14,930 bases of DNA from Calditrichaceae bacterium (GCA_050178385.1 JBFXGD010000078.1:1-14930), one strand, 5' to 3'; counted from the stretch's first letter, positions 1,469 through 14,930 are shown. Made by a program: numbers and translations. Notes: generated by a model from the letters alone, not told the origin.

Positions 1469-3928
1469 CTAGCCAAGATATTTTGACATCTTCTGATAAA
1501 CAGCTTCTTTAAGAGATTCGTATGTATGATTTTCCGGATAAACCGGGCTGTGAAATTTCACAAATATCTTCTTAAAAGGTTTTGGAAAATGGCTGCCTGA
1601 CGGTAAAGCTTCAAACGCGCCTCTGATGGTGACCGGTACAACGGGAACATTCAATTCGCGGCTTAGAATGGCGAAGGTTTTCTTGAAAGAACCAATATGA
1701 CCGTCTTTTGAGCGTGTTCCTTCCGGAAAGATGATGATATTTTTACCCTTCTTTAAGGCGGCGGCCATCTTCTGCAGGGAAATTTTCAGGTCTTTATTGA
1801 TATCCATAATGATGACATTGTTCCGGTCAGCGATAAATTTGAGCCATTTTTTGCTGACGTGTTTTTCTTTCGCGTAAAAATAGGTTTTTTTCATCTGCTT
1901 GTTTTTGAGAAAAGAGACAACAAAAAGACCATCGAAAAAACTCTGGTGATTTGGCGCGAGTATAAATGGCGACTCCGGCAAATTCTCGGTGCCTTCACCT
2001 TTTAACCGGAAATATAAGTTCAGAAATACCCGTGAAGTGTTTTTGAACAGATTATGCGTGAACCAGCTTTTCGGCAGATTAATATCCAGTTTTTCCCGCA
2101 GAATATCGCCCCAGTTTACCGTTTCCACATCGATTTTAACTTTTTCGTCACGGACGACGAGCGCCAGTTTTTCTATAGTCGGGTACTGCATAAACTCTTC
2201 TTCTTTGATATCTACGCCAAAGGTAGAATTCAGGAATACCTGTAAACTTACTTTTCCAAGGGAGTCAAGACCAAGATCGATTTCTATATGATCGTCATGA
2301 TAGACTTCACGGCCTGCTTCTTCATTGAGAAATTGCTTAATGATTTTGTATTCTTCGAAATCCGGTTCTTCTCCGCGCTGTCTCTCACTGCGCGTATCTT
2401 CAGACAATGATGGAAGCATAAAACGCTTGACTTTGCCAAGCCTTGTCTTCGGAAGTTCCTCTTTTAGAATACTGAAATTGGTGATTCTTTTGTATGGTGA
2501 AACCTGGGAATTATATTTATTGATAATTTCCTGCCTGAAAATTTCTTCAATATTTAATAAACCATCCTCCTGAATCCTGGCGAAGTCGGGATAAATTGCC
2601 GCCTGAAGTGTATCACCTTTCAGGAATACGCCGATTTCGTTGATATATGCGGACATGTTTAGGATTTTGAACTCAACTTCCACCGGATTTACATTCTTGC
2701 CATTGGGGAGAATAATAATTTCTTTTTTACGACCGGTAATGACCAGATGACCGTCTTTGTCCAATCTTCCCAGATCCCCTGTGTAAAGCCATCCATCCTT
2801 TAATATTTCGTCAGTCTCCTCTTTCCGGTTATAATATCCCTGCATCACGTTTCTGCCCTTGGCGGTAATTTCGCCTTCATCGGTGATGCGGATTTCATTG
2901 GTCATCATCCGTTCGCCGGCGGATCCTATTTTCCATCTGCCGGGACGGGTAAAGGAGATCATCGGCGCGGCTTCTGTCATGCCGTAACCGGGCAGTATTT
3001 CGAAACCCAGAGTCTTGTAGTCCCTGGCGACTTCATCATCGATGGCGGCTCCACCGCATACCATAAAGTGGACATTACCGCCGAATTTTTGTTGTACGGT
3101 TTTGAACAACACCTTTGAGAATGCCCGTGAATCAATTTTTTCCGCCAGCTTGAACAGGGTTTTGGTAACCGCGCTTTTATTAATTTTGTCCATTATGCCT
3201 TTTCTTATAAGATTATAAAATCGCGGTACGCCGATGATAATGGCGATGGCATTGTTCTGCAGGGTTTCCATGATGTCTTCCGCCGCCATGGAAGGGGCGA
3301 AAGCGATCGTTGAACCCACAGAAAGCGGCGCGATCATCGAACCAATCAGCGGGAATGTGTGATGCAAAGGCAATAACACCATCACGTTTCTGTCAGATGT
3401 GTAAATATTGACATAATCAGAAACAGCTTCAACATTTGCCAGAATATTATCAAAAGAAAGCATGACGCCTTTCGGACTTCCGGTTGTTCCCGATGTATAA
3501 ATAATTAACGCTGTTTTGTCTTTATCGGGTTCGGGAAATACGGAGTTTACCGAAGGCGCGTTACGGATATCGATATCTTCAAATTTTAGAACTTTTTGGT
3601 CATACGTTACCGTTTGCAGCGCGCTCTCAACCGTTTTGTAAGTTTCATTGGAGCAGAAAATAATTTCAGGTTTACAGTCATTTAATATATACGCGACTTC
3701 ATCGGAAGTAGACATATAATCGATTGGAACGGCGATACAATCATTTTTCCAGGACGCGTAAAACGCATATACCCAGTCAAGGCTGTTTTCGGCGAAAATT
3801 GCGACCTTTTTTGTTTTGGCGGATTCAAATAATCCGGAGTAATAATCAACATTTTTTACAAGCGTTTCGTAACTGATTTTCAGGTCTTTCCAGACGAGGG
3901 CCGTTTTACCGTGATCTTTTAGAAACAA
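1469..3928 (-). CDS. Tri-domain long-chain fatty acid AMP-ligase / acyl carrier protein / PlsC-type acyltransferase (Aas-like), 819 aa
   Basis: AMP-binding motifs YTSGTTGSPKG, GYGMTE, GWLYTGDLG and GRKKEII. Phosphopantetheine site DLGLDSL (Ser codon at 2261-2263). Acyltransferase motifs NHQSFFD (HX4D) and FPEGTRS. Start revised to TTG at 3928 (AAGGAG 6 nt upstream) because the ORF-track extension to 4009 overlaps the promoter. Confidence 0.9.
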   Translation of the reverse strand: MFLKDHGKTALVWKDLKISYETLVKNVDYYSGLFESAKTKKVAIFAENSLDWVYAFYASWKNDCIAVPIDYMSTSDEVAYILNDCKPEIIFCSNETYKTVESALQTVTYDQKVLKFEDIDIRNAPSVNSVFPEPDKDKTALIIYTSGTTGSPKGVMLSFDNILANVEAVSDYVNIYTSDRNVMVLLPLHHTFPLIGSMIAPLSVGSTIAFAPSMAAEDIMETLQNNAIAIIIGVPRFYNLIRKGIMDKINKSAVTKTLFKLAEKIDSRAFSKVLFKTVQQKFGGNVHFMVCGGAAIDDEVARDYKTLGFEILPGYGMTEAAPMISFTRPGRWKIGSAGERMMTNEIRITDEGEITAKGRNVMQGYYNRKEETDEILKDGWLYTGDLGRLDKDGHLVITGRKKEIIILPNGKNVNPVEVEFKILNMSAYINEIGVFLKGDTLQAAIYPDFARIQEDGLLNIEEIFRQEIINKYNSQVSPYKRITNFSILKEELPKTRLGKVKRFMLPSLSEDTRSERQRGEEPDFEEYKIIKQFLNEEAGREVYHDDHIEIDLGLDSLGKVSLQVFLNSTFGVDIKEEEFMQYPTIEKLALVVRDEKVKIDVETVNWGDILREKLDINLPKSWFTHNLFKNTSRVFLNLYFRLKGEGTENLPESPFILAPNHQSFFDGLFVVSFLKNKQMKKTYFYAKEKHVSKKWLKFIADRNNVIIMDINKDLKISLQKMAAALKKGKNIIIFPEGTRSKDGHIGSFKKTFAILSRELNVPVVPVTIRGAFEALPSGSHFPKPFKKIFVKFHSPVYPENHTYESLKEAVYQKMSKYLG

Positions 3929-3959
3929 GCTGTTCTCCTTATCTATATGCTTAGCTGTA

Positions 3960-3988
3960 ATTATAATGATAATATTGCATTTTGTAAA
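3960..3988 (-). promoter_or_regulatory. sigma70-type promoter of the acyl-ligase fusion gene
   Basis: Minus strand reads TTTACA (3988-3983), 17 bp, TATAAT (3965-3960), about 30 nt upstream of the TTG start. Confidence 0.75.
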
Positions 3989-4137
3989 GGCTAAAGTGCC
4001 TGAAAACAAAGTATAAAATCAAAAATTGCCGTATGAAAGATGGTTTAAATCAATTAGTAATACTGTAGGTTATGACGCAGAAACCAGAACCTGAAAAACA
4101 TATTTTTTATCTCATACCTTCATAAAAAATTATTTTA

Positions 4138-4166
4138 TTGACAATGATAAAGGTATGTTTTATACT
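4138..4166 (+). promoter_or_regulatory. Near-consensus sigma70 promoter of the operon
   Basis: TTGACA (4138-4143), 17 bp, TATACT (4161-4166), with an AT-rich UP-element-like tract upstream. Confidence 0.85.
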
Positions 4167-4174
4167 TGATTTAA

Positions 4175-4188
4175 GTTGTACGGACAAC
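4175..4188. promoter_or_regulatory. Putative GntR/HutC-family operator
   Basis: Palindrome GTTGT-ACGG-ACAAC just downstream of the predicted +1. It resembles HutC-subfamily sites (TTGTA-NN-ACAA type), and a GntR-UTRA gene lies in the operon. Confidence 0.75.
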
Positions 4189-4205
4189 CGCACAACCGCA
4201 CAACC
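4184..4205 (+). repeat. 8-bp tandem repeat ACAACCGC x2.75
   Basis: acaaccgc acaaccgc acaacc, overlapping the right arm of the operator palindrome. Confidence 0.85.
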
Positions 4206-4226
4206 AGAATTTATCTGGAGAATGGT

Positions 4227-5621
4227 ATGAAATTTAATCGACTTGGCAGTGTAGTTACGGCCATTCTGATTATACCCGCCGTCTTGCTCTGCTCACAAAA
4301 CTCACTTATCCCCGCGGATACCCTGACCATCGGATTGATAGGCGATCAGACCGGATCATATGACCTGTCGGCGACCTATCAAATCATGGAAAAGGCGGTT
4401 GAACAGATGGATGCTAAAAATCCCGATCTCGTACTGCATGTAGGCGATCTGGTTGAAAGCATCAGAGGCATCAACTCCTTTGAAGATTATAAATCGAATT
4501 TTGACTATGCTGTGAACATACTCAATCGTCTGAATGCGCCCTGGTATCTCACCGCGGGTGATCATGATGTGGCACCACCTGTTTATCAGGCCGGATCATG
4601 TGACAGATCAAGGGAAGAATGGTTCCAGAAACTGTGTTCAGCCGCCGGTTTGCCCATGGAAAAGCAACTATATTACAGTTTCGACTTTAATAATTATCAT
4701 TTTATTTCCCTTTACTCCCTTGAAAATTTACATACCGATCCCAGATGGGGTCCCATTTTTTTGAATCAGTTGTCTGATGAACAAATCGCCTGGTTAAAGA
4801 ACGATCTGGAAGCTCACAAAAACGCGCCGGGGATCATAGTCCTTGTACATCAGCCTCACTGGTATGTGTGGTCAAACTGGTCGGAAATTCACCAAATACT
4901 CAGACAATATCCGGTTGCGGCGGTCATTGCAGGACATTTTCATTATGATCAGGATGACGGTATGATCGATCAGATAAGATACCTGGTGATGGGCGCCACG
5001 GGAGGCGTCGTTAAAAATATGGATCCCAATTCAGGCGGATCATCTCAATTCGCTACTCTTAAGCTGTATAAGAACAAGGTTACCCATATCAATCTTTTTG
5101 ATCTTTCATCGGGTGAATCTCTTGAACTGACGCCCCGCAGGACCATGGACCGGCTTCAGGCGCTCTCCTGTATGCTTGATAATTTGTTTATGGATGAAAA
5201 TATAGGCCGTAAGAACGGACAGCTTTTTACCATCACAGGCGAAGGCCAGTACAGCTCATTGAAACAAATCGGCCTGGAATCACTGGCGAATCCGATCGAT
5301 TTGCCGATTCGAATTAAGATAAGCACGGACCGGGATATACTTCAAAATCCGCGCTGGATCCGTTCAGGGAAGTCAATCCCGGATTCTTCTTTTATCGAAT
5401 TGGAACCCGGTGAGAGAACTGGCTGGGCAAATTATACCAGTGTGGGGCAATGGGCTAAACCGGATCCTTTATGGGTGTGTGATCTTACCGGTAATCCGGA
5501 GAGATTAAAGGATCTTACCGGTATTGCCATAACGATAAAGATTTCATTCACTGATCAGGGTGAACGCTGGGTTGAATCAACTGCCCGTTTTCCCGTAAAA
5601 AAAATTGAAGACAATTTATAG
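4227..5621 (+). CDS. Secreted/periplasmic calcineurin-like metallophosphoesterase with a C-terminal domain of unknown function, 464 aa
   Basis: ATG at 4227 follows GGAG. Signal-peptide-like N-terminus MKFNRLGSVVTAILIIPAVLLCSQ. Motifs GDQTG, HVGDLVE, AGDHD, VHQPH and AGHFH. The ORF-track TTG at 4176 lies within the operator. Confidence 0.85.
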   Translation: MKFNRLGSVVTAILIIPAVLLCSQNSLIPADTLTIGLIGDQTGSYDLSATYQIMEKAVEQMDAKNPDLVLHVGDLVESIRGINSFEDYKSNFDYAVNILNRLNAPWYLTAGDHDVAPPVYQAGSCDRSREEWFQKLCSAAGLPMEKQLYYSFDFNNYHFISLYSLENLHTDPRWGPIFLNQLSDEQIAWLKNDLEAHKNAPGIIVLVHQPHWYVWSNWSEIHQILRQYPVAAVIAGHFHYDQDDGMIDQIRYLVMGATGGVVKNMDPNSGGSSQFATLKLYKNKVTHINLFDLSSGESLELTPRRTMDRLQALSCMLDNLFMDENIGRKNGQLFTITGEGQYSSLKQIGLESLANPIDLPIRIKISTDRDILQNPRWIRSGKSIPDSSFIELEPGERTGWANYTSVGQWAKPDPLWVCDLTGNPERLKDLTGIAITIKISFTDQGERWVESTARFPVKKIEDNL

Positions 5622-5651
5622 TCAGATGTTAATTTATTCAGGATATGTCCA

Positions 5652-6428
5652 ATGGCAGTAAACGTTACAGAAATTGAAAAATCAAGTGTAATACCAATTT
5701 ATCACCAGTTGTACTCCATTCTGCTCGATTTAATACACAGCGAAGTTTATAAGCCTTATGACCGGCTTCCTTCGGAAAATGAACTCACCGCGCAATATAA
5801 AATCAGCCGTCAAACGGCTCAAAAAGCTTTAAATGTCCTTGTTGAACAGGGAATTGCTCACCGGATGCAGGGGAAGGGTACTTTTGTGAGCGATAAGACG
5901 ATCACTTACAGCATCACTGCCTCTTTGAGTTATTCCACGGAAATAATCGGATTAAATAAAGTTCCCCGAAGCGAGTTAATTCATGCAAAGGAAATTGAAA
6001 CATCAGGTCTTATCTCAAGGAATCTCTCGCTGGACGAAGGATCTCCCGTTTACAGCATTCAAAGGGTTCGTTATGTGGATGATATTCCAATGGCTTTGCA
6101 GACTTCCTATATACCGAAATATCTCGTACCCGGACTGATCGATAAAAAATTTGAAGAAGGCTCATTGTTTAAAACGATACGCAAAGAATACCAGCTGGAA
6201 ATCGGTCACGCCACTGAATATTTGAAAGCGGTAAAATGCGATCAATATGAATCCAAAAGGCTCTGCATTATGGAAGGAGACGCTATTCTGCTCCTTGAAA
6301 GAATCACCCGCTTAAAGGACGGTAGAATTCTTGAATTTGTAAGGTCCGTCCTGAGGGGCGACAAAAGCAAGATATCAATCGATCTGTCAACCTATACTAA
6401 CGGGGAGAGGAAAACTGTTGGAAGATAA
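5652..6428 (+). CDS. GntR-family transcriptional regulator, HutC subfamily (wHTH + UTRA)
   Basis: PIYHQL...RLPSENELTAQYKISRQTAQKALNVLVEQG...QGKGTFV, followed by a UTRA-like domain (RVRYVDDIPM...SLFKTI...LLLERIT...EFVRSVLRGD). Confidence 0.93.
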   Translation: MAVNVTEIEKSSVIPIYHQLYSILLDLIHSEVYKPYDRLPSENELTAQYKISRQTAQKALNVLVEQGIAHRMQGKGTFVSDKTITYSITASLSYSTEIIGLNKVPRSELIHAKEIETSGLISRNLSLDEGSPVYSIQRVRYVDDIPMALQTSYIPKYLVPGLIDKKFEEGSLFKTIRKEYQLEIGHATEYLKAVKCDQYESKRLCIMEGDAILLLERITRLKDGRILEFVRSVLRGDKSKISIDLSTYTNGERKTVGR

Positions 6429-6939
6429 ACGCGGACATTTCAACACCGGAACGGGCAAAAAAGAATATTTTACCCCGAAAAGAATCGCGCGCATTTCCAT
6501 CCTGATTGCCATTAGCGCGGTGGGTTCATTAATAAAGATTCCAAGCCCCACAGGAACAGTCTCTCTTGACGCGTGTACCGGGTATTTCTCGGCAGTGACA
6601 TTCGGCTGGATTGAAGGATCGCTTGTGGGTGGCCTCGGGCATATGCTGTCGGCTTTTACAACCGGTTTTCCACTCGGCCTTCCGGTACATCTCTATATCG
6701 CGTTTCAGATGGCTATCTGGGTTTCGGTATTCTCAATCATCGCCCGTAAAATTAATCTGATCCTTGCTGTCATTGCGGCCATCTTCTTAAATGGAGTGGT
6801 TTCATCCTATTTAATAATTCCGTTTGGCGGTATGGGTATGGCGACCGCCCTTTTAATTCCGCTGATTGTGGGCTCGGCGGTTAATATCATTATTGCCGCT
6901 CTGGCTTATAGAATTGTTCAAAAGAGTAATTTTGTATGA
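6418..6939 (+). CDS. cblT: ECF transporter S component, CblT-like (alpha-ribazole transporter family)
   Basis: 173 aa hydrophobic protein. IKIPSPTGTVSLD...GHMLSAFTTGFPLGLPVHL matches the CblT signature as I recall it (GH.LSA...GFPL.LP.HL). It sits directly upstream of a cblS-like gene. TTG start follows GGAGAGG. Confidence 0.8.
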   Translation: MEDKRGHFNTGTGKKEYFTPKRIARISILIAISAVGSLIKIPSPTGTVSLDACTGYFSAVTFGWIEGSLVGGLGHMLSAFTTGFPLGLPVHLYIAFQMAIWVSVFSIIARKINLILAVIAAIFLNGVVSSYLIIPFGGMGMATALLIPLIVGSAVNIIIAALAYRIVQKSNFV

Positions 6940-7763
6940 AAACAGAACTATTACCTGAACTGGATATGCTTTATTCTCATCTTAAAAAGGGTGAAAATAA
7001 CTTTAAGCATAGCCAGGTAAGAGATCTCACCAAAATTGGTCTGGGGAACGGCTATTCTCTTATAGTGGCGGTAGATTCGGACGGCGGGATCGGCTCGCGT
7101 CCGGGAGATTTTGTCAAAACGGATGATTATCTGGTTGGCAGATTTGCCATGCGTGTGCCTTTGTTGGAGATTCTGGCTTCCGGCGCGCTCCCGCTGGCCG
7201 CGTTTGATACATTGACTTTGCCCATGGATGATCACGGACTGAAAATTATCAAAGGCATAAAAGATGAATTAATGGAAGCGGGACTCGGAAAGGATTTTCC
7301 GCTGTCCGGGAGCACGGAAGACAATGTACCGACAAAGGAAACCGGTATCGGCACCATGGTGATTGGTATCGTTCATGACAGAGATTTTCGTCCGGGAACC
7401 GGCGTCGCGGGTGACGTGGTTGTTTGTCTCGGAATACCGAAATCTGCTCCCGGGGACAAAGTTACTATTGATGATGCTCAGATTGTGAAATTGAAAGAAA
7501 TAAGGCAAATATCGGAAAAATCTGATATTCATGACATTCTTCCGGTGGGATCTCATGGGGTTTTATATGAAGCTATGAAAATGGCGGACTCTGCCGGATT
7601 AAACTTTAGGGTGCTGGAAAATTCAGGAATTGATCTTAAAAAATCCGGAGGCCCGGGTACCTGTATCATTCTATCCTGTAAAGTAATGATGGGAAAAGCA
7701 CTCCGGAAGTTAACAGGCGCTCCTGTGACAAAAATCGGACAGCTGGAAAAAAGAAGTATCTGA
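6936..7763 (+). CDS. cblS: CblS-like alpha-ribazole kinase (PurM/AIR-synthase-related fold)
   Basis: QVRDLT, DSDGGIG, RVPLLEILASGA, GIKDEL, GSTEDN, PVGSHG.LYEA and KSGGPGTC follow, in order, the motifs I recall from Listeria CblS (QVRDLS, RVALLEMLASGA, GLKDEL, GSTEEN, PVGSKGMAYEA, KTAGPAS). ATGA overlap with cblT. Confidence 0.8.
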   Translation: MKTELLPELDMLYSHLKKGENNFKHSQVRDLTKIGLGNGYSLIVAVDSDGGIGSRPGDFVKTDDYLVGRFAMRVPLLEILASGALPLAAFDTLTLPMDDHGLKIIKGIKDELMEAGLGKDFPLSGSTEDNVPTKETGIGTMVIGIVHDRDFRPGTGVAGDVVVCLGIPKSAPGDKVTIDDAQIVKLKEIRQISEKSDIHDILPVGSHGVLYEAMKMADSAGLNFRVLENSGIDLKKSGGPGTCIILSCKVMMGKALRKLTGAPVTKIGQLEKRSI

Positions 7764-7805
7764 AGATCATTTAATCACGTCGAAAATCGACGACAGGGAA
7801 ATCCA

Positions 7806-9536
7806 TTGAATTTAATCTTTGAAAATGTCAATTACCAGTACCCAAAAGGTAAGACGCTTGCGCTCAAAGATATCAATTTAGCCACAGGCGGAGATCGTGT
7901 AATTGCGTTGATGGGACGGACCGGATCGGGCAAGACAACGTTGTTAAGCGCAATGAACGGGATTATACCTCAGTTTCATGACGGTAATTTTGACGGAAAA
8001 GTTCTGCTGAATGAGGACTCTACATCCGATCTGCCTATTCAGCAGCTTGTCCGCAAGGTGGGTCTTGTTCTACAGGACCCGGAGACACAGATTTTTGGAT
8101 TAACTGTTGAAAAAGACATCGCCTTCGGCCCAAGTAATTTGAATTTTCCAAAAGAAAAAATAAATGAAATTGTAAAAATGTCCGCTAGAGCCGTTAATCT
8201 GGAATCATTTATGGAAAGGTCTCCCGATCAGCTCTCCGGGGGCGAAAAACAACGGCTCGCCATTGCCGGCATACTTGCTCTTGAGTCACCGGTGCTGGTT
8301 CTGGATGAACCAACTTCTGAACTGGATCCGGAAGGCGCGGAAACAGTCAATCAGGCATTACAAAATTTGAAGAACGGGGGACACCGGCTGATCATTTTCA
8401 GCACCCATAATCCCGATAATGTAATCGGTTCAGCGGATGAAATATGGGTCATGGAAAGCGGTGAAATTAAATATATAGGCGATCCCGGAAATTTTTTCAG
8501 TCATATGGATTTACCGGGAATTTACGGATTGCAAATTCCGGAGGTAACCGATCTTTTTAGAAAAATGCATTACCTCAATTGGTACAAAAAAGATGAACTG
8601 CCTGTGACTCTGGAATCGGCCGTTTCGGATTTTGAAAAAATTCTGAAAAAAGTAAAAAATATTAATGTGCCGCGTGCCAAATATCTTATGACGCGGTCTG
8701 CCGGATCGCAGAACAGAATTATTGAGATAGACAGATTAAGTCACCATTACACCAGCGGACAGCTTGCGGTGGACAATGTGTCGCTTACGATTAATTCGCA
8801 GCAGATTGTCGCAATCCTTGGTAAAAACGGCGCGGGCAAAACCACGCTGGTCAAACATCTGATCGGGTTGCTAAGACCCACTCAGGGAAGGGTGTTGATC
8901 AAAGGCCGGGACATCGCGGATCTCAGAATCGAGGAGATAAGCCGTGATGTGGGTTTTGTGTTTCAGAACCCGGATCATCAGATATTTTCACCGTCAATCT
9001 ATGAAGAAATTGAATATGGTCTGCTTAATCATGGATTTGATAAAGTGTCAGCAAAAGAAAAAATTCAGAATGCTCTGGAACTGACAGGACTTACCGGTAA
9101 GGAGCATTTACACCCGTTCAGCCTGAGTAAAGGAGAGAGACAAAAAATTGCCATGGCATCCGTCCTGGCGGTGGAGCCTGAAATAATTGTAATCGATGAG
9201 CCCACTACCGGTCTTGACTGGAGAGATTCCATAGCTCTCATGGAAGAAATACGCAAACTAAAGGAAAAAGGCCATACGATCATTATGATTACACACAACC
9301 TGCGTCTGGCGGCTGATTATGCGGATAAAGTGATTCTATTGCAGAATGGTAAACTGATTTGTGAAGGAGAAACCCACTCCATATTGAATGATATGGAGTT
9401 GCTGAAGAAAACCTCATTGAGGCCTTTGCAGATCTCGCTGTTGGTTCACAGGATGAAAAAATACGGAATACCACAGGATATCATCACGATAAGCGAATTA
9501 ATTGATTATATGAAATTTGTAATACAGGAAAACTAG
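7806..9536 (+). CDS. ECF transporter fused double ATPase (EcfA-EcfA')
   Basis: Two ABC cassettes: GRTGSGKT / LQDPETQ / LSGGEKQR / LDEPT and GKNGAGKT / FQNPDHQ / LSKGERQK / IDEPT. The Q-helix PxxQ is typical of ECF ATPases. Confidence 0.92.
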   Translation: MNLIFENVNYQYPKGKTLALKDINLATGGDRVIALMGRTGSGKTTLLSAMNGIIPQFHDGNFDGKVLLNEDSTSDLPIQQLVRKVGLVLQDPETQIFGLTVEKDIAFGPSNLNFPKEKINEIVKMSARAVNLESFMERSPDQLSGGEKQRLAIAGILALESPVLVLDEPTSELDPEGAETVNQALQNLKNGGHRLIIFSTHNPDNVIGSADEIWVMESGEIKYIGDPGNFFSHMDLPGIYGLQIPEVTDLFRKMHYLNWYKKDELPVTLESAVSDFEKILKKVKNINVPRAKYLMTRSAGSQNRIIEIDRLSHHYTSGQLAVDNVSLTINSQQIVAILGKNGAGKTTLVKHLIGLLRPTQGRVLIKGRDIADLRIEEISRDVGFVFQNPDHQIFSPSIYEEIEYGLLNHGFDKVSAKEKIQNALELTGLTGKEHLHPFSLSKGERQKIAMASVLAVEPEIIVIDEPTTGLDWRDSIALMEEIRKLKEKGHTIIMITHNLRLAADYADKVILLQNGKLICEGETHSILNDMELLKKTSLRPLQISLLVHRMKKYGIPQDIITISELIDYMKFVIQEN

Positions 9537-10337
9537 ATGTTTTTAGAATACCAAAAGGGGAATTCGATTCTGCATAGACTCGATATCAGGACAAAGGGAC
9601 TGGGGTTTATCGTTGTCGTCATTGCTGCTTTTTTGTTTACAGCACCCGAGTATAATTTAATCATATTAATTCTGTGCCTGGCATTAATGAGACACATCCG
9701 GATGCCGGCGAGCAGGCTGGAGATGATGCTTAAGCCCCTGATCCCTATCCTGATTTTAATAATACTTTTCTCAGCGGTTTCTTACAGTCCTGAATATTTT
9801 CAGAAACCTATGTCTCAAAAAGTCTTGTTCTCAGCAGGATTTATGACATGCACGGTTGGCGGCATTCTGCTGGGTATTTCTCTAAGCATCAGAATACTGA
9901 CCATGGTAATCGCCTCGACGCTACTGACTTATTCAACACCGATTGATGACTTTATACACATACTCAGGCTTATGCGAGTTTCGCATAAAATTGCCTTTGT
10001 TCTCACAACAGGAATGAGATTTATACCAACCATGGACAAAAAATCACGACAAATTATAGAGGCGCAAAGAACCAGAGGCGCTAATTTCCATGAGGGCGGC
10101 CTGGTCCGTAAAATCAAAGCTTATATTCCGGTAATGGTCCCGATGATCGTCGAATCGCTCCGCATGTCGGAAAACCTGGCTATGGCGATGCTGAACCGCG
10201 GGTTCGGCGCGTCAAAAAACTGGACGGTTATGGACGAGCTGAATCCGGGTATAAAAGATGCCGTTATTACGATTTCTTTACTGTTTATTATCACTCTGTT
10301 GATTTATTTAAAAATTTTAGGATACGGAAAAATCTGA
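9537..10337 (+). CDS. ecfT: ECF transporter transmembrane T component
   Basis: Y..GNSILHRLDIRTK N-terminus, RFIPT motif, and two coupling Arg motifs (EAQRTRG, AMLNRGF). Starts immediately after the ATPase stop (TAGATG). Confidence 0.92.
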   Translation: MFLEYQKGNSILHRLDIRTKGLGFIVVVIAAFLFTAPEYNLIILILCLALMRHIRMPASRLEMMLKPLIPILILIILFSAVSYSPEYFQKPMSQKVLFSAGFMTCTVGGILLGISLSIRILTMVIASTLLTYSTPIDDFIHILRLMRVSHKIAFVLTTGMRFIPTMDKKSRQIIEAQRTRGANFHEGGLVRKIKAYIPVMVPMIVESLRMSENLAMAMLNRGFGASKNWTVMDELNPGIKDAVITISLLFIITLLIYLKILGYGKI

Positions 10338-10350
10338 AAAGGAAAATGTT

Positions 10351-11352
10351 ATGTCTGAACTGGAAGAAAGAATTTATGGTGCGTTAATTGGGGTTGCGGC
10401 GGGTGATGCCATGGGTATGCCCTCGTCAATGATGAGTCCGGAAATCATTCGCTCTACTTTCAAGACATACATCACCGATTTCCTGCCGGCTCCGAAAGGA
10501 CATGTCATACATGATAAGATGGCAGCAGGGCAAATAACCGATGATACACAGCAAACCCTGTCACTGGCGGATTCAATCATTGAGAAGGGGTTTGTGGATC
10601 CGCATGATGTGGCAAAAAAACTTATCGAATGGGCGGAATCGGTTGATGCCTTCGATTCAATGATTCTTGGGCCGAGTACGCTTCGAAGCCTTTACGCAAT
10701 CAAGGCAGGCAAGTCAATTGAGGAATCCGGGACAGCGGGGGATACAAACGGCGCGGCAATGAAAATAAGCCCGGCAGGAATTTTTGGAATGGGCAATCGT
10801 GAAAAAACGGTCGATGCGGTCGCGAAAGTTTGCATGGCTACTCACAACACCAATATTGCGATTGCGGGGGCATCTGCTGTCGCGATGGCTGTGGGCAAAG
10901 GTATCACCGGTGAACAGGACATGAATACAATCATCGCGCACGCGTTTCAGGCGGTGGAGCTCGGGATGGGAAAGGGAAGGATATGGTACGGGGCATCGAT
11001 CATTGACCGCACAAGATTGGCGCTTGAAATTGTCTCCGGAAATTCCGAGAAATCCGAAAAACTGGAAACGCTTTACAAAGTCATTGGCGCGGGTGTTGCT
11101 ATGACGGAAACGGTTCCCGTTTGTCTGGCCATCGCCAAACTGGCTGAAGGCAATCCGGTGGAGGCGATTCAGATGGCGACGAACCTCGGCGGAGACTGTG
11201 ATACAATCGCTTCTATTACAGGCGGAATTTGCGGGGCCATCTCCGGGTCCAGGGCATTCCCCAATAAATGGATTGAAATAATTGAAAGAGTTAATCATTT
11301 AAATCTGGAGGGGTACGCGCGCAAATTATATCAGGTCGTCAATAAAAATTAG
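10351..11352 (+). CDS. ADP-ribosylglycohydrolase (DraG/ARH family), YegU-like subgroup
   Basis: GALIGVAAGDAMGMP, QITDDT, LGPST, TNGAAMKISP, TH, LYKVIGAG...ETVP and NLGGDCDTIA. The metal-binding TDD and DxDT motifs are intact. No signal peptide, so cytoplasmic. Confidence 0.92.
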   Translation: MSELEERIYGALIGVAAGDAMGMPSSMMSPEIIRSTFKTYITDFLPAPKGHVIHDKMAAGQITDDTQQTLSLADSIIEKGFVDPHDVAKKLIEWAESVDAFDSMILGPSTLRSLYAIKAGKSIEESGTAGDTNGAAMKISPAGIFGMGNREKTVDAVAKVCMATHNTNIAIAGASAVAMAVGKGITGEQDMNTIIAHAFQAVELGMGKGRIWYGASIIDRTRLALEIVSGNSEKSEKLETLYKVIGAGVAMTETVPVCLAIAKLAEGNPVEAIQMATNLGGDCDTIASITGGICGAISGSRAFPNKWIEIIERVNHLNLEGYARKLYQVVNKN

Positions 11353-11371
11353 TCATCATGGAGAGAATATT

Positions 11372-13261
11372 ATGTCCATTTTTAATCATCTTCGAATTTA
11401 TGCAATTGTTTTATTTTTAATCGTACTTGTATCGCATACATTGGGTAGTGATGACTCGACGAAAGTAAAACAGGATAGGATGGCGGAACGGGTGATTCTT
11501 ACCGCCGAGGATTTTAAGAAATTAAATTGTGAAAATGTCGGTGACGCTTTGAGTAATCTTTCGGGTGTCACGGTGAGTTCATTAGGGGAGGTCTCTCTAA
11601 GAGATGTAAGTTCATCAAAAGTGGTCATCATATTTGACGGACAAAAATTAAATACAGCCGGCGGAACCGGAGTCAGGGTCAATTCTATTTCGATTGAAAA
11701 TATTGAAAAGGTAGAGCTTCTGAGGGGCGGCCGGTCAGCTCAGTACGGCGCCGATGCTGTCGGAGGTGTTATACGTATTACTTCAAAAACACAGAAATCT
11801 CAGGAAGCTCTCTGGAACGTTGGCGCGAGGGCCAGTTACGGTTCATACAACAATCAGATATACGGTTTAAATCACTCTCTTTCTTCGGGTTCATTTGATT
11901 ATTTTGCTTCCTATAAACGGGAAACATGGGATGGTGACTTTGAATACACTGACAATTTCGGAGAACGGGTCAATCTTGAAAATAACGAGCAGGATTCTTA
12001 TTTTCTGTTTCTTAAATCCGGTTACAGGCTGGATGACATCCAGAACATCAACGCCTCATTCAGTTATTACAAAGCGGACAATGGTACACCTGGTATGATT
12101 GACAACCAGACTCCGAACGCGCGTATCCGTTTTGATAACAAATCCTACAATCTCAACTATGACAATAAAGCTCTATTTAAAGATTTCTCAATGAAAATGC
12201 AGGGATATTTTCTGGACAATGAGACAAAATTTGATGACCCGGACGGTTTGGTACCCGTTCACAGTGATCATGACAATTATGCGCTGGGAATTGATCTGCA
12301 GCAGGCGGGAAACCTTTCGGAACTGCTGAGTGTTTCCTATGGTTATTCCTATCGAAACGACCGTATTGAAAGCACGGATATCGAGAATAAAAACCGGGAT
12401 ACACAGAGCGGTTTCTCAACGCTCACCATTGCTAAGGATGTGAATAAATTGATCTCGCGCTGGGATGTTGCCCTTGCCCTGAGATATGATGCTCCTTCAG
12501 ATTTTGACCCCGAATTCAGTCCGCGCCTAAGCATCGGTGTTTCAAGCAATAATGACCTGGTAAACACTTCATTGCAGACTCATATAACCCGTTCATACCG
12601 CGCGCCCACGTTTAATGATCTGTATTGGCCCCGTGATGCTTTCGCGGTCGGAAATCCTGATCTTAAGCCCGAAGTAGGATTTAATTATGATATCGGAATT
12701 AATCTGTCAAAAACGATTGAATCGGCAAATTTGTCCGGATCAGTAAACTACTTCGTCAATGAGGTAACGGATTTAATCCTGTGGGCTCAGGACCCGGCTT
12801 TGAACAATTTATGGACCCCAAAAAACATATCGGAAACATCGACTAAGGGAATTGAATTTTCAAGTACGATTGATCTGTTTAAAGGCAAAGTCGTTTTGAA
12901 TTCGGAATACACCTATATGAAAGCCCTGGATAAGGGTCCTGATCCGAACAGGAATAACAAGTATATCATTTACAAACCCAAAAATAAATTAGATTTTACC
13001 GGGACATTCAGACTGTACGATTTTGAATGGAATATCATGTATCATTATTACGGATTGCGGTACACTAACCCCGCGAATACGTTGTGGCTCGATGCGGTGA
13101 GCCTGATTGATACAAATGTAACTTATAAATTCGACTTTAATCGTTATAAAGCAAATATCACCTTTGAGGTAAGTAATCTCACCGATGAAGACTATCAGCG
13201 TGTGCGGAATACCGCTGAACCCGGAAGAATGTTTAAGATGTCATTTGGAATAGATATTTAG
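11372..13261 (+). CDS. TonB-dependent outer-membrane receptor, BtuB-like (copy 1; no N-terminal extension, no evident TonB box)
   Basis: Signal peptide. Plug motifs VVIIFDGQKLN and IEKVELLRGGRSAQYGADAVGGVIRI. Barrel motif YRAPTFNDLYW...GNPDLKPE. C-terminal NLTDEDY...PGRMFKMSFGIDI. Confidence 0.88.
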   Translation: MSIFNHLRIYAIVLFLIVLVSHTLGSDDSTKVKQDRMAERVILTAEDFKKLNCENVGDALSNLSGVTVSSLGEVSLRDVSSSKVVIIFDGQKLNTAGGTGVRVNSISIENIEKVELLRGGRSAQYGADAVGGVIRITSKTQKSQEALWNVGARASYGSYNNQIYGLNHSLSSGSFDYFASYKRETWDGDFEYTDNFGERVNLENNEQDSYFLFLKSGYRLDDIQNINASFSYYKADNGTPGMIDNQTPNARIRFDNKSYNLNYDNKALFKDFSMKMQGYFLDNETKFDDPDGLVPVHSDHDNYALGIDLQQAGNLSELLSVSYGYSYRNDRIESTDIENKNRDTQSGFSTLTIAKDVNKLISRWDVALALRYDAPSDFDPEFSPRLSIGVSSNNDLVNTSLQTHITRSYRAPTFNDLYWPRDAFAVGNPDLKPEVGFNYDIGINLSKTIESANLSGSVNYFVNEVTDLILWAQDPALNNLWTPKNISETSTKGIEFSSTIDLFKGKVVLNSEYTYMKALDKGPDPNRNNKYIIYKPKNKLDFTGTFRLYDFEWNIMYHYYGLRYTNPANTLWLDAVSLIDTNVTYKFDFNRYKANITFEVSNLTDEDYQRVRNTAEPGRMFKMSFGIDI

Positions 13262-13268
13262 GAAAAAC

Positions 13269-14930
13269 ATGTATTCAAAAATGATCAAATACTGTTTTAC
13301 AGTTTGCGCCTTTCTTCTTATGGGAAATGAGGATCTGAACGCGCAGGACAGCGGGAAAATCTATGGGTATATACTGGACAGAAATACGGGAAAACCTATA
13401 GAACAGGCCTGTGTCGTGCTTGATCCGGATTCAATCGGCGCAGAAACTAATTTCGACGGCATTTATTTTATTCCGAAGATACCCTCGGGCAGGTATCAGC
13501 TGCGAGTTGAGATGATCGGTTACGAAACCATTTCAGAGCATTCCGTTACAATTCAGCCGAATGAATCCAGGGAAATGAATTTCTTTCTAAAGCCGATTAT
13601 CTTAACCGGCTCTGATGAGATTGTTGTCACCGCGACCCGTGGAAAATCAATGACGAATGAAGTTCCGGCATCGGTGGATGTCATAAGTATGGAAAAGATA
13701 CAGCTTCTTGCGCCGCAGAATATGGCGGAAGTGCTTGAAAATGTACAGGGTGTATTTATTAAGGATTACGGAGGCATCGGTGGGAATAAGACCATCTCAC
13801 TAAGAGGCTCCAGTTCGGAACAGGTGCTTGTTCTCCTGGACGGTCAGAGATTAAATGACGCGCAGAGCGGACAGGTTGATTTCAGCGCAATCTCTTTGGA
13901 AGGAGTTGAGAAAATTGAGGTGGTAAGGGGAGGTAATTCAGCACTTTACGGGGCTGACGCGGTGGGCGGCGTCATAAATATCATTACGAGTAAAAAACAC
14001 GACAGGGAAGGCATATCAGGTTCGTTAAAAATGATGAACGGTTCTTTTCAATCTTTATCCGTAGAACCCGCGCTTAAAGTCAGATATGATAATTTCGGCG
14101 GATCACTTAGCTTTAAATATCTCAGCAGCGAAGGAGACTTTTCTTATAAAAATCTTGAAGGCCGGGATGAAAAGCTCGACAATAATGACATTACCGCACA
14201 GGATCTGTTCGCGCGTTTTTACTATCTGTTTGACGACTCCCTTTTTCAAAGAACGCTGAATTTTTCATACAAATATTATGACTCCGAGAGAGGCAGCCCC
14301 GGGAATATTGAACTTCCGTATCGTTCTGCCCGTCTCTGGAACACAAGCCAGCAATTTAATACGACATTTTCCGGAAAAGTTTTTAATCTGATGAACGATC
14401 TTCAGGTTCAGGCCTACGCGCATACAGGTAATTCAAGATATAAAAATGACGAAGGCCTTGTTCTGATAGACAGCCGTTACGAAAACGGCACCTACGGTCT
14501 GGAAACACAGATGCAATCCATATTTACCGGCGGACAAATGCTCACATACGGCGCGGGTTACCGAAACGATTGGATGAACAGCGAAGAGTTTGCCGAAGAC
14601 CATACAAGGGATTCCTATTATATTTTTCTGCAAAATGAGACCGAAATTAAGATGAAAAACCATTATCCGCTGAAATCATTGACATTTGTGCCTGCCGTGC
14701 GGCTGGATGGATTTTCTGATTTCGGGTCACACGTATCTCCGAAAATCGGCGGAGTGATAAACTTTGGACACTCCTGGCAAACAGCTCTCAAATGGAACGC
14801 CGGTCTCAGTTACCGGGCGCCTAATTTTAACGAATTGTACTGGCCGGAAGACGCGTGGACAAAAGGAAATTCTGATCTGGAAGCGGAACACGGCTATGAC
14901 TGGGATGCGGGGATACGGCTTCGCTACCCG
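13269..14930 (+). CDS. TonB-dependent receptor, BtuB-like, with carboxypeptidase-regulatory-like N-terminal domain (copy 2; 3'-truncated by the window edge, not in ORF track)
   Basis: Manual translation is open from ATG 13269 to the end: MYSKMIKYCFTVCAFLLMGNEDLNAQDSGKIYGYILDRNTGKPIEQA...IGYET..., TonB box DEIVVTA (13614-13634), plug IKDYGGIGGNKTISLRGSSSEQVLVLLDG, IEVVRGGNSALYGADAVGGVINIIT, ...SYRAPNFNELYWPEDAWTKGNSDLEAE. Confidence 0.9.
   Translation, partial: MYSKMIKYCFTVCAFLLMGNEDLNAQDSGKIYGYILDRNTGKPIEQACVVLDPDSIGAETNFDGIYFIPKIPSGRYQLRVEMIGYETISEHSVTIQPNESREMNFFLKPIILTGSDEIVVTATRGKSMTNEVPASVDVISMEKIQLLAPQNMAEVLENVQGVFIKDYGGIGGNKTISLRGSSSEQVLVLLDGQRLNDAQSGQVDFSAISLEGVEKIEVVRGGNSALYGADAVGGVINIITSKKHDREGISGSLKMMNGSFQSLSVEPALKVRYDNFGGSLSFKYLSSEGDFSYKNLEGRDEKLDNNDITAQDLFARFYYLFDDSLFQRTLNFSYKYYDSERGSPGNIELPYRSARLWNTSQQFNTTFSGKVFNLMNDLQVQAYAHTGNSRYKNDEGLVLIDSRYENGTYGLETQMQSIFTGGQMLTYGAGYRNDWMNSEEFAEDHTRDSYYIFLQNETEIKMKNHYPLKSLTFVPAVRLDGFSDFGSHVSPKIGGVINFGHSWQTALKWNAGLSYRAPNFNELYWPEDAWTKGNSDLEAEHGYDWDAGIRLRYP

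Follow-up and report, generated by a model that had tools for sequence, protein, structure and literature searches.

Why would a bacterium in whose genome neither CobS nor CobU was found carry relatives of CblT and CblS, the transporter and kinase of vitamin B12 lower-ligand salvage? The question is raised by a stretch of 14,930 nucleotides (nt) from a Calditrichaceae bacterium (GCA_050178385.1, JBFXGD010000078.1; hereafter the window), which is the whole of contig C78 in a host assembly of 3.89 Mb and 320 contigs that is 94.2% complete. Behind one promoter-like site it carries nine open reading frames (ORFs), all on the plus strand (4227-14930) and spaced by anything from an 11-nt overlap to a 42-nt gap. 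They encode a metallophosphoesterase, a GntR regulator, a CblT-like energy-coupling factor (ECF) S component, a CblS-like kinase, a fused EcfA-EcfA' ATPase, EcfT, an ADP-ribosylglycohydrolase (ARH)-fold hydrolase and two TonB-dependent receptors. The nine co-oriented genes, their families and a spacing that never exceeds 42 nt had been read from this DNA in an earlier note, and are borne out by ORF calls and by Pfam and NCBIfam searches.

The pairing and order of these gene families recur across phyla, and they stand apart from the genes of B12 assembly. The core of the locus is probably a module that imports, phosphorylates and deglycosylates its substrate. For the locus as a whole we lean, a little beyond even, towards a substrate-induced system that captures, imports and dismantles an exogenous riboside. 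Its substrate would most likely be an alpha-ribazole-like alpha-riboside, that is, the nucleoside of a cobamide lower ligand, and its purpose the dismantling or salvage of parts, not B12 assembly. A literature search outside the subscription journals returned no published description of a CblS/CblT-ARH cluster, and in the accessible part of PMC13389410 alpha-ribazole is mentioned only in connection with CobC.

Recurrence and extent of the gene cluster

The argument centres on two genes of the window, a CblS-like small PurM-superfamily kinase of what we call the ARH-linked clade (6936-7763; Pfam AIRS 24.9 bits, a borderline score to the PurM N-terminal domain), and a YegU-type ARH-fold hydrolase (10351-11352; Pfam ADP_ribosyl_GH E 8.5e-61). 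Loci were sampled as the nearest 80 of 220 relatives, and the CblS proteins of Listeria and Geobacillus do not figure among these 80. An ARH homologue lies downstream of the kinase on the same strand in 61 of the 80 loci, directly adjacent in 32 (gaps of 3-536 nt), after the ECF genes in 27 and elsewhere nearby in two, so that the gene combination singled out by the earlier note does recur; seven of the 19 remaining loci have too little downstream sequence to judge. The 80 loci span at least eight phyla (Calditrichota, Fidelibacterota/Marinimicrobia, Acidobacteriota, Ignavibacteriota, Bacillota, Actinomycetota, Spirochaetota and others), and within the host's own phylum the kinase is present in five of 86 genomes. 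The cluster is a patchy accessory trait over many phyla.

Two layouts can be told apart. The Gram-positive one, exemplified by Bacillus litorisediminis, Brevibacillus fluminis and Actinopolymorpha alba, runs GntR, S component, kinase, EcfAA', EcfT, ARH. That of the Fibrobacterota-Chlorobiota-Bacteroidota (FCB) group runs phosphoesterase, GntR, kinase, ARH, receptor, receptor, propeller, often without ECF genes and with an optional tail of binding protein, AhcY, NupC and adenosine deaminase. The window combines the two. Among the 61 ARH-linked loci, ECF genes are present in 27-28, the receptor pair in 25-26 and a GntR homologue in 46. Loci without ECF genes have nucleoside importers instead, namely NupC (seven loci), a PnrA-type ABC transporter or a ureide-permease-like carrier, and nucleoside hydrolases and adenosine deaminase also occur in related loci. 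In Acidobacteriota, the kinase-ARH pair adjoins nucleoside hydrolases and the ureide-permease-like carrier, and in Rubrobacter a nucleoside hydrolase and a PnrA-type nucleoside ABC transporter.

Two further observations concern individual loci. CblS-like kinases adjoin PnrA/Bmp-type nucleoside ABC transporters in L083 (5331-10756), where no ARH is nearby, and in L065 (13561-18504). A few kilobases downstream in the Bacillus litorisediminis locus (L049), a second ARH-domain protein of 703 amino acids is encoded on the minus strand (16817-18928), beside a LacI-type regulator.

The earlier note had placed the bounds of the operon at 4138 and 14930, but the operon continues beyond the window. The nearest locus to the window comes from a Calditrichaceae metagenome-assembled genome. 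In the twin locus L011, whose proteins are 83-95% identical to those of the window one by one, receptor 2 is followed by a beta-propeller lipoprotein and then by a Peripla_BP_2 lipoprotein. A tblastn search of the host genome located both genes on contig C141, at 93-95% identity to those of L011, in a continuation of the operon that also encodes AhcY (adenosylhomocysteinase), a NupC-type transporter and adenosine deaminase (C141, locus L092, 3373-9183, minus strand). These genes lie on the same strand and are tightly spaced; the family names of the last three are taken from homologues, and this AhcY is the sole copy found in the host genome. An 838-residue protein with a weak Por secretion tail comes after them.

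So heterogeneous a gene set could be a mosaic of merely co-transcribed functions: the B12 import set of the host (receptors, propeller and binding protein), methyl-cycle and adenosine genes (AhcY, adenosine deaminase and NupC), and an independent riboside module. Such a reading would agree with a host that uses B12 yet is without its assembly genes (see below), with the single genomic copy of AhcY, with Gram-positive loci that hold only GntR, S component, kinase, ECF genes and ARH, and with the presence of a second receptor-propeller-binding-protein trio on host contig C235. However, gene order and tight spacing are kept across phyla, and no riboswitch was found, though one is usual for B12 import genes. 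In addition, the places within the cluster of the binding protein, NupC and adenosine deaminase vary in L052, L070 and L071, a shuffling more in keeping with functional linkage than with synteny by descent. A mosaic therefore appears improbable to us, and an integrated riboside system remains the preferred reading.

Kinship with CblT/CblS and separation from B12 assembly

Are the S component and the kinase, then, CblT and CblS, as the earlier note had named them? At the level of families their sequences place them there. The S component (6418-6939; Pfam ECF_trnsprt 3.7e-15) shares 46% and 49% identity with its counterparts in L086 and L087, two loci in which S component and kinase lie directly behind a cobalamin riboswitch (RF00174). 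This would be a high identity for S components of differing substrates. The kinase is 39-42% identical to the kinases of B12 contexts, that is, of L086, L087 and L085, in the last of which the kinase gene stands ahead of a binding protein, CobU, CobS, a CobC-type phosphatase and CobA. The S-component relatives P0312 (61% identical) and P0395 (46%) carry the source name alpha-ribazole transporter; among relatives of the kinase, one that is 31% identical carries the source name alpha-ribazole kinase and another is fused to precorrin-2 dehydrogenase. No NCBIfam model matched either protein. The predicted model of the kinase (predicted local distance difference test score, pLDDT, 95.5) has the PurM-superfamily fold, with ThiL, SelD, HypE and PurM as top structural matches, while phmmer retrieved no solved structure for it at E <= 1. 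Its family comprises 485 representatives at 50% clustering.

The part of the assignment that did not stand is the placement of the kinase within its family. In a maximum-likelihood tree (a quick search, with rows L077 and L083 dropped for in-frame stops), a branch with 98% support in the Shimodaira-Hasegawa-like approximate likelihood ratio test (SH-aLRT) separates six B12-linked or correspondingly named rows from 76 others, among them every one of the 62 ARH-linked kinases. The window kinase is thus not inside the clade of B12-linked CblS, although 18 residues are invariant across both clades. Because only the 80 nearest loci were taken, canonical CblS is under-sampled in this tree; and because the kinase clade lies apart from B12-linked CblS, alpha-ribazole is a substrate that we infer. 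On the same tree, a 475-residue Alicyclobacillus fusion of a precorrin-2 dehydrogenase-type N-terminus with a CblS-like kinase domain (P0164/P0283-P0284) groups with the Sulfoacidibacillus kinase of L090, which adjoins a cytosine/purine permease.

The host itself is informative. A search for CobS, CobU, CobT and CbiZ, a check that the earlier note proposed, found none of them in the 94%-complete genome, and CobS is present in only three of ten other carrier genomes. On the other hand, the host has seven ORFs with B12-binding domains, some of them as long as MetH or a mutase, as well as one FecCD permease; as a B12 user without assembly genes, it has to take up the cofactor ready-made. In the window, an Rfam scan (E <= 1) gave no cobalamin riboswitch and only two matches at chance level (Cripavirus IRES and STnc150), and RF00174 was not found anywhere in the host genome. 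Likewise, no cobalamin riboswitch was found in seven of seven ARH-linked Gram-positive-type loci scanned, nor in five of five further stretches (L011, L014, L022, C141 and C235). With neither RF00174 nor CobS and CobU found in the host, no genomic link of the kinase to cobamide assembly was seen there, and since CobT and CbiZ were not found either, a role other than B12 assembly fits.

Listeria CblT transports alpha-ribazole, not alpha-ribazole phosphate, and alpha-ribazole salvage by CblT/CblS is reported to have been described in Listeria innocua and Geobacillus kaustophilus by Gray and Escalante-Semerena in 2010 and by Mattes and Escalante-Semerena. PMC6461909 and PMC6167548 also touch on this salvage system. 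The window shares with these systems the S-component and PurM-fold kinase families, adjacent and in the same order, as well as the conserved kinase motifs. Unlike them, it has a kinase of a separate clade (the Listeria and Geobacillus proteins are not in the tree), a GntR regulator in place of a cobalamin riboswitch, an ARH after the kinase, and its own ECF energising module, made up of the fused EcfA-EcfA' ATPase (7806-9536; NCBIfam ECF_ATPase_2 469 bits and ECF_ATPase_1 444 bits, both above their cut-offs) and the transmembrane component EcfT (9537-10337; Pfam CbiQ 2.4e-31). Moreover, its host, being without CobS and CobU, cannot attach a lower ligand.

These data bear directly on canonical salvage, in which alpha-ribazole would be attached to cobinamide in the course of B12 assembly. 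Family-level homology and the source names of relatives speak for it, but they are set against the four genes not found in a 94%-complete genome, the lack of CobS in seven of ten other carriers, the lack of a cobalamin riboswitch in the window, the host genome and the other stretches scanned, the distance of the kinase clade from B12-linked CblS, and the attachment, in 61 of 80 loci, of an ARH by which the salvage product would be destroyed. We rejected this candidate on those grounds, and hold it to be very improbable indeed.

The hydrolase, the envelope parts and the proposed route

What would the hydrolase add to an S component and kinase of this kind? The window ARH scores 206.6 bits against Pfam ADP_ribosyl_GH (cut-off 26.2), and its motifs GDA (D19), T63-D64-D65-T66 and G280-G281-D282-x-D284-T285 are invariant in ten of ten aligned sequences; by analogy with the ARH3 and DraG structures, we take these conserved residues to be di-metal ligands. 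It is 36% identical to Escherichia coli YegU over 329 residues, which is the full length (E 2e-65), and more distant from a host paralogue on contig C37 (30%, E 9e-27), while its best solved match, MJ1187, covers the N-terminal half only. Both the full-length similarity and the importer/kinase/GntR neighbourhood identify it by sequence as YegU-type. Protein de-ADP-ribosylation of the DraG or Tri1 kind was considered and rejected: scores are far under the cut-offs of these curated equivalogs (85 bits against 337 for DraG, 73 against 490 for Tri1), and the metabolic neighbourhood is unfitting. The C37 paralogue (L009, 987-2430) directly follows a Nudix hydrolase. Preceded by SucB and followed by a Gfo/Idh/MocA oxidoreductase, this Nudix-ARH pair looks ADP-ribose-related and distinct from the ARH of the window.

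ARH-family enzymes act on alpha-configured ribosyl bonds. In Salmonella, the PfkB kinase STM4066, encoded beside an ARH gene, phosphorylates aminoimidazole riboside, and the stm4065-4068 cluster is said to follow the same four-part plan as E. coli yegTUV. The literature search turned up no paper on what STM4066 does. According to the accessible part of a 2024 paper (PMC10819704), yegTUV encodes a nucleoside-type carrier of the major facilitator superfamily (MFS), an ARH and a PfkB kinase, with the GntR repressor YegW/GgaR; none of the yegTUV genes is given a known function there, and ADP-glucose is proposed as the effector of YegW/GgaR. The regulator of the window (5652-6428; GntR/HutC-type with a UTRA effector domain, Pfam GntR 2.7e-17 and UTRA 5.5e-37) is 26% identical to YegW/GgaR over 145 residues. 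The E. coli cluster is thus like the window in joining an importer, a riboside or sugar kinase, a YegU-type ARH and a GntR repressor, and unlike it in that kinase and importer are of non-homologous families and outer-membrane parts are missing. Because the same plan recurs with unrelated kinases and importers, the import-phosphorylate-ARH plan itself appears to be the functional unit. The same logic, a 5'-phosphate first and ribose-5-phosphate plus base second, underlies nucleoside routes that phosphorylate and then deglycosylate, such as YeiC-YeiN (pseudouridine kinase and glycosidase) and Qng1 (queuosine-5'-phosphate glycosidase), whose protein families are unrelated to those of the window. 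We know of no ARH-fold enzyme in such a role.

The kinship with YegU also opens the possibility that the same module serves a riboside unconnected with cobamides, for instance a modified or damaged nucleoside or a pyridine- or imidazole-type riboside, the likeness of the envelope parts to BtuB, BtuG and BtuF being mere family resemblance. E. coli YegU has no B12 link, its partners being an MFS nucleoside carrier and a kinase of the PfkB type, STM4066 acts on an imidazole compound of this type, other loci hold nucleoside hydrolases, PnrA ABC transporters, NupC and adenosine deaminase, and the window has a GntR regulator in place of a riboswitch and a kinase of a clade distinct from B12-linked CblS. 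AhcY, NupC and adenosine deaminase, taken together with the YegU relationship, none of which figures in the earlier note, point to nucleoside handling in general. Nevertheless, the identity of 46-49% between the S component and riboswitch-controlled CblT, and the consistent presence of BtuB-, BtuG- and BtuF-like genes in Gram-negative loci, make us regard a non-cobamide riboside as somewhat unlikely, if a serious rival, and we continue to prefer an alpha-ribazole-like substrate.

The evidence of the envelope parts begins with the phosphoesterase that heads the operon (4227-5621, 464 amino acids; calcineurin-type, Pfam Metallophos E 1e-14). The automatic ORF call starts at a TTG at 4176, but the start most likely lies at the in-frame ATG at 4227, which has GGAGAA ahead of it and gives the lipoprotein signal MKFNRLGSVVTAILIIPAVLLC/SQ. 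The lipobox VLLC and the motifs GDQTG, GDLVE, GDHD and GHFH are all there, whereas about 200 residues at the C-terminus have no match to any family, and there are weak matches to purple acid phosphatases. What had been called a secreted phosphoesterase is therefore indeed a metallophosphoesterase with a signal, but a lipoprotein and not simply a secreted enzyme. Its homologues head 18 related loci by clustering, and ten by tblastn at a coverage of at least 40%. For this protein a pre-uptake phosphatase role seems at least as likely as cutting of the nucleotide loop. In the Ignavibacteriota loci L041 (14431-16260) and L071 (5985-7877), a Metallophos-CBM9-like fusion located after the ARH replaces the lipoprotein phosphoesterase at the operon head.

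Receptor 1 (11372-13261; Pfam Plug and barrel) and receptor 2 (13269-14930; N-terminal CarboxypepD_reg domain by Pfam, cut by the contig end) are BtuB-like at the level of the family only, a qualification that the earlier note did not make. The nearest solved chains of receptor 1 are 8bmx_C, Bacteroides thetaiotaomicron BtuB1 and E. coli BtuB (E 1e-23 to 5e-18), and those of the full-length twin of receptor 2 in L011 are BtuB1 (1e-34) and E. coli BtuB (7.5e-34). Receptor 1 has 12 solved matches and the L011 twin 45; in both rankings the first eight are BtuB proteins or 8bmx_C, and the colicin I receptor comes next after the B12 receptors. Against the curated models, however, the two receptors reach 147 and 172 bits for TIGR01779 (TonB-B12; cut-off 599.7), below equivalog level, and 125 and 144 bits for PRK10641 (cut-off 836).

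The propeller encoded on C141 has a lipobox followed by an acidic stretch, and matches, less strongly than it does an archaeal S-layer propeller, BtuG1 (8blw_B, E 4.7e-9), the BtuG-family structures 8ptd and 8ptf (1.5e-9) and, at 0.004-0.017 only, BtuG3; 8blw_B, 8ptd and 8ptf are assigned to BtuG proteins through the accessible part of PMC10404256. The nearest solved structure to the Peripla_BP_2 lipoprotein is the 'iron-binding protein' 4m7o, followed by B12-binding and BtuF proteins. In their make-up, window and C141 together resemble the BtuB-BtuG(-BtuF) system of B. thetaiotaomicron, with its TonB receptor, beta-propeller surface lipoprotein and class-III binding protein (PMC10404256, accessible part). 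In contrast to that system, the window locus has two tandem receptors, is without riboswitch or BtuCD genes, joins its set to a phosphoesterase and riboside module, and shows similarity that stays under the BtuB cut-offs. The envelope parts suggest, at family level and short of proof, a corrinoid-like cargo. The trio on C235 (L093, 397-4433) is a receptor-propeller-Peripla_BP_2 set paralogous to the first, about 25% identical to it, in which no cobalamin riboswitch was found. The main import of B12 into the host may run through this second set.

From these components a route can be proposed. BtuB-like receptors, the BtuG-like propeller and the BtuF-like binding protein would capture a cobamide-type molecule or fragment, as a phosphorylated or larger precursor of the riboside, at the surface or in the periplasm, where the lipoprotein phosphoesterase would strip a phosphate or, less likely, cut the nucleotide-loop diester, yielding the free riboside. 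The CblT-like ECF transporter would bring this riboside into the cytoplasm, a step that NupC or other nucleoside carriers would perform in relatives without ECF genes. The CblS-like kinase would then form the riboside 5'-phosphate, whose glycosidic bond the YegU-type ARH would hydrolyse to ribose-5-phosphate and the free base, and either the riboside or this phosphate would release the GntR/UTRA repressor. The leading candidate for the substrate is alpha-ribazole or a similar alpha-riboside, because the S component and kinase are homologous to CblT and CblS, the envelope parts are BtuB/G/F-like, and ARH enzymes prefer alpha-configured bonds. That the riboside derives from cobamides we put forward tentatively, as falling somewhat short of an even chance; that the entire series from BtuB/G/F-like capture and phosphoesterase release, through CblT-like import and CblS-like phosphorylation, to ARH cleavage of the alpha-N-glycosidic bond forms a dedicated cobamide-dismantling pathway is doubtful. 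CbiZ and CbiR, the cobamide remodelling enzymes, would act on the nucleotide loop and lower ligand, the same part of the cofactor as proposed here, and remodelling needs CobS and CobU; neither enzyme has homology to the window proteins, and CbiZ, CobS and CobU were not found in the host.

Several observations weigh against the proposed system. With full flanks available, 12 of the 80 loci have the kinase without an ARH. The separate clade of the kinase may mean a substrate different from alpha-ribazole, and we know of no activity for any member of this ARH-linked clade or for any YegU-type ARH. Since the host depends on intact B12, the BtuB/G/F-like genes could simply be its B12 importer; the receptor scores lie far under the curated BtuB cut-offs, and among solved structures the propeller comes closest to an archaeal S-layer YVTN protein (2.9e-14), ahead of BtuG1. 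Alpha-ribazole offers no explanation for adenosine, to which the presence of AhcY, NupC and adenosine deaminase points. Finally, induction through GntR would be better suited to a nutrient than to a metabolite present in traces, and little alpha-ribazole occurs in the environment.

Regulation, flanking genes and implications

How would such a system be switched on? The promoter-like site at the head of the operon, TTGACA-17 nt-TATACT (4138-4166, plus strand), agrees with the consensus at 11 of 12 positions. Since consensus matches across the whole region are no commoner than in shuffles (23 found against 23.4 expected), the evidence for a promoter is its conservation in L011, where the site is kept although the DNA farther upstream is unrelated; on this ground the promoter placed here by the earlier note is supported. 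Downstream of this site and ahead of the start codon come three tandem copies of CACAACC(G) (4178-4205), also conserved in L011. Together with the palindrome GTTGTACGGACAAC that precedes them (4172-4205 for the whole, plus strand), and near-invariant in comparison with L011, they form a candidate GntR operator, a function we infer from the sequence. Riboswitch control of the operon was rejected, the Rfam scan of the window having returned no cobalamin riboswitch.

Upstream, and divergent from the operon, the window encodes an 846-residue fusion of AMP-binding enzyme, phosphopantetheine carrier and acyltransferase (1469-4009, minus strand; Aas-like), with PyrD (36-998) and a 4HBT thioesterase (985-1422) farther upstream. 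These are unrelated to the genes found at this place in L011 (427-4620), where ORFs of 995, 295 and 113 amino acids are putative Cas9, Cas1 and Cas2 by their size and N-terminal sequence.

If the proposed reading is true, relatives of CblT and CblS are not always markers of B12 lower-ligand salvage, and comparative-genomic cobamide predictions that count 'CblS' (for example PMC6461909, in its accessible part) would miscount the ARH-linked clade. It would also give the YegU-type ARH enzymes, orphans in E. coli and Salmonella, a testable class of substrates. Environmental bacteria would then have a further way of dealing with a keystone vitamin, in which they consume its fragments and do not rebuild it, and this bears on the cross-feeding of alpha-ribazole in marine settings (PMC9296465, accessible part). 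Should the more specific reading of cobamide dismantling be true, the locus would be the first example of catabolism of the B12 lower ligand, would show the ARH fold for the first time in the role of a small-molecule alpha-nucleotide glycosidase, and would provide a function for the orphan YegU/STM4067 family.

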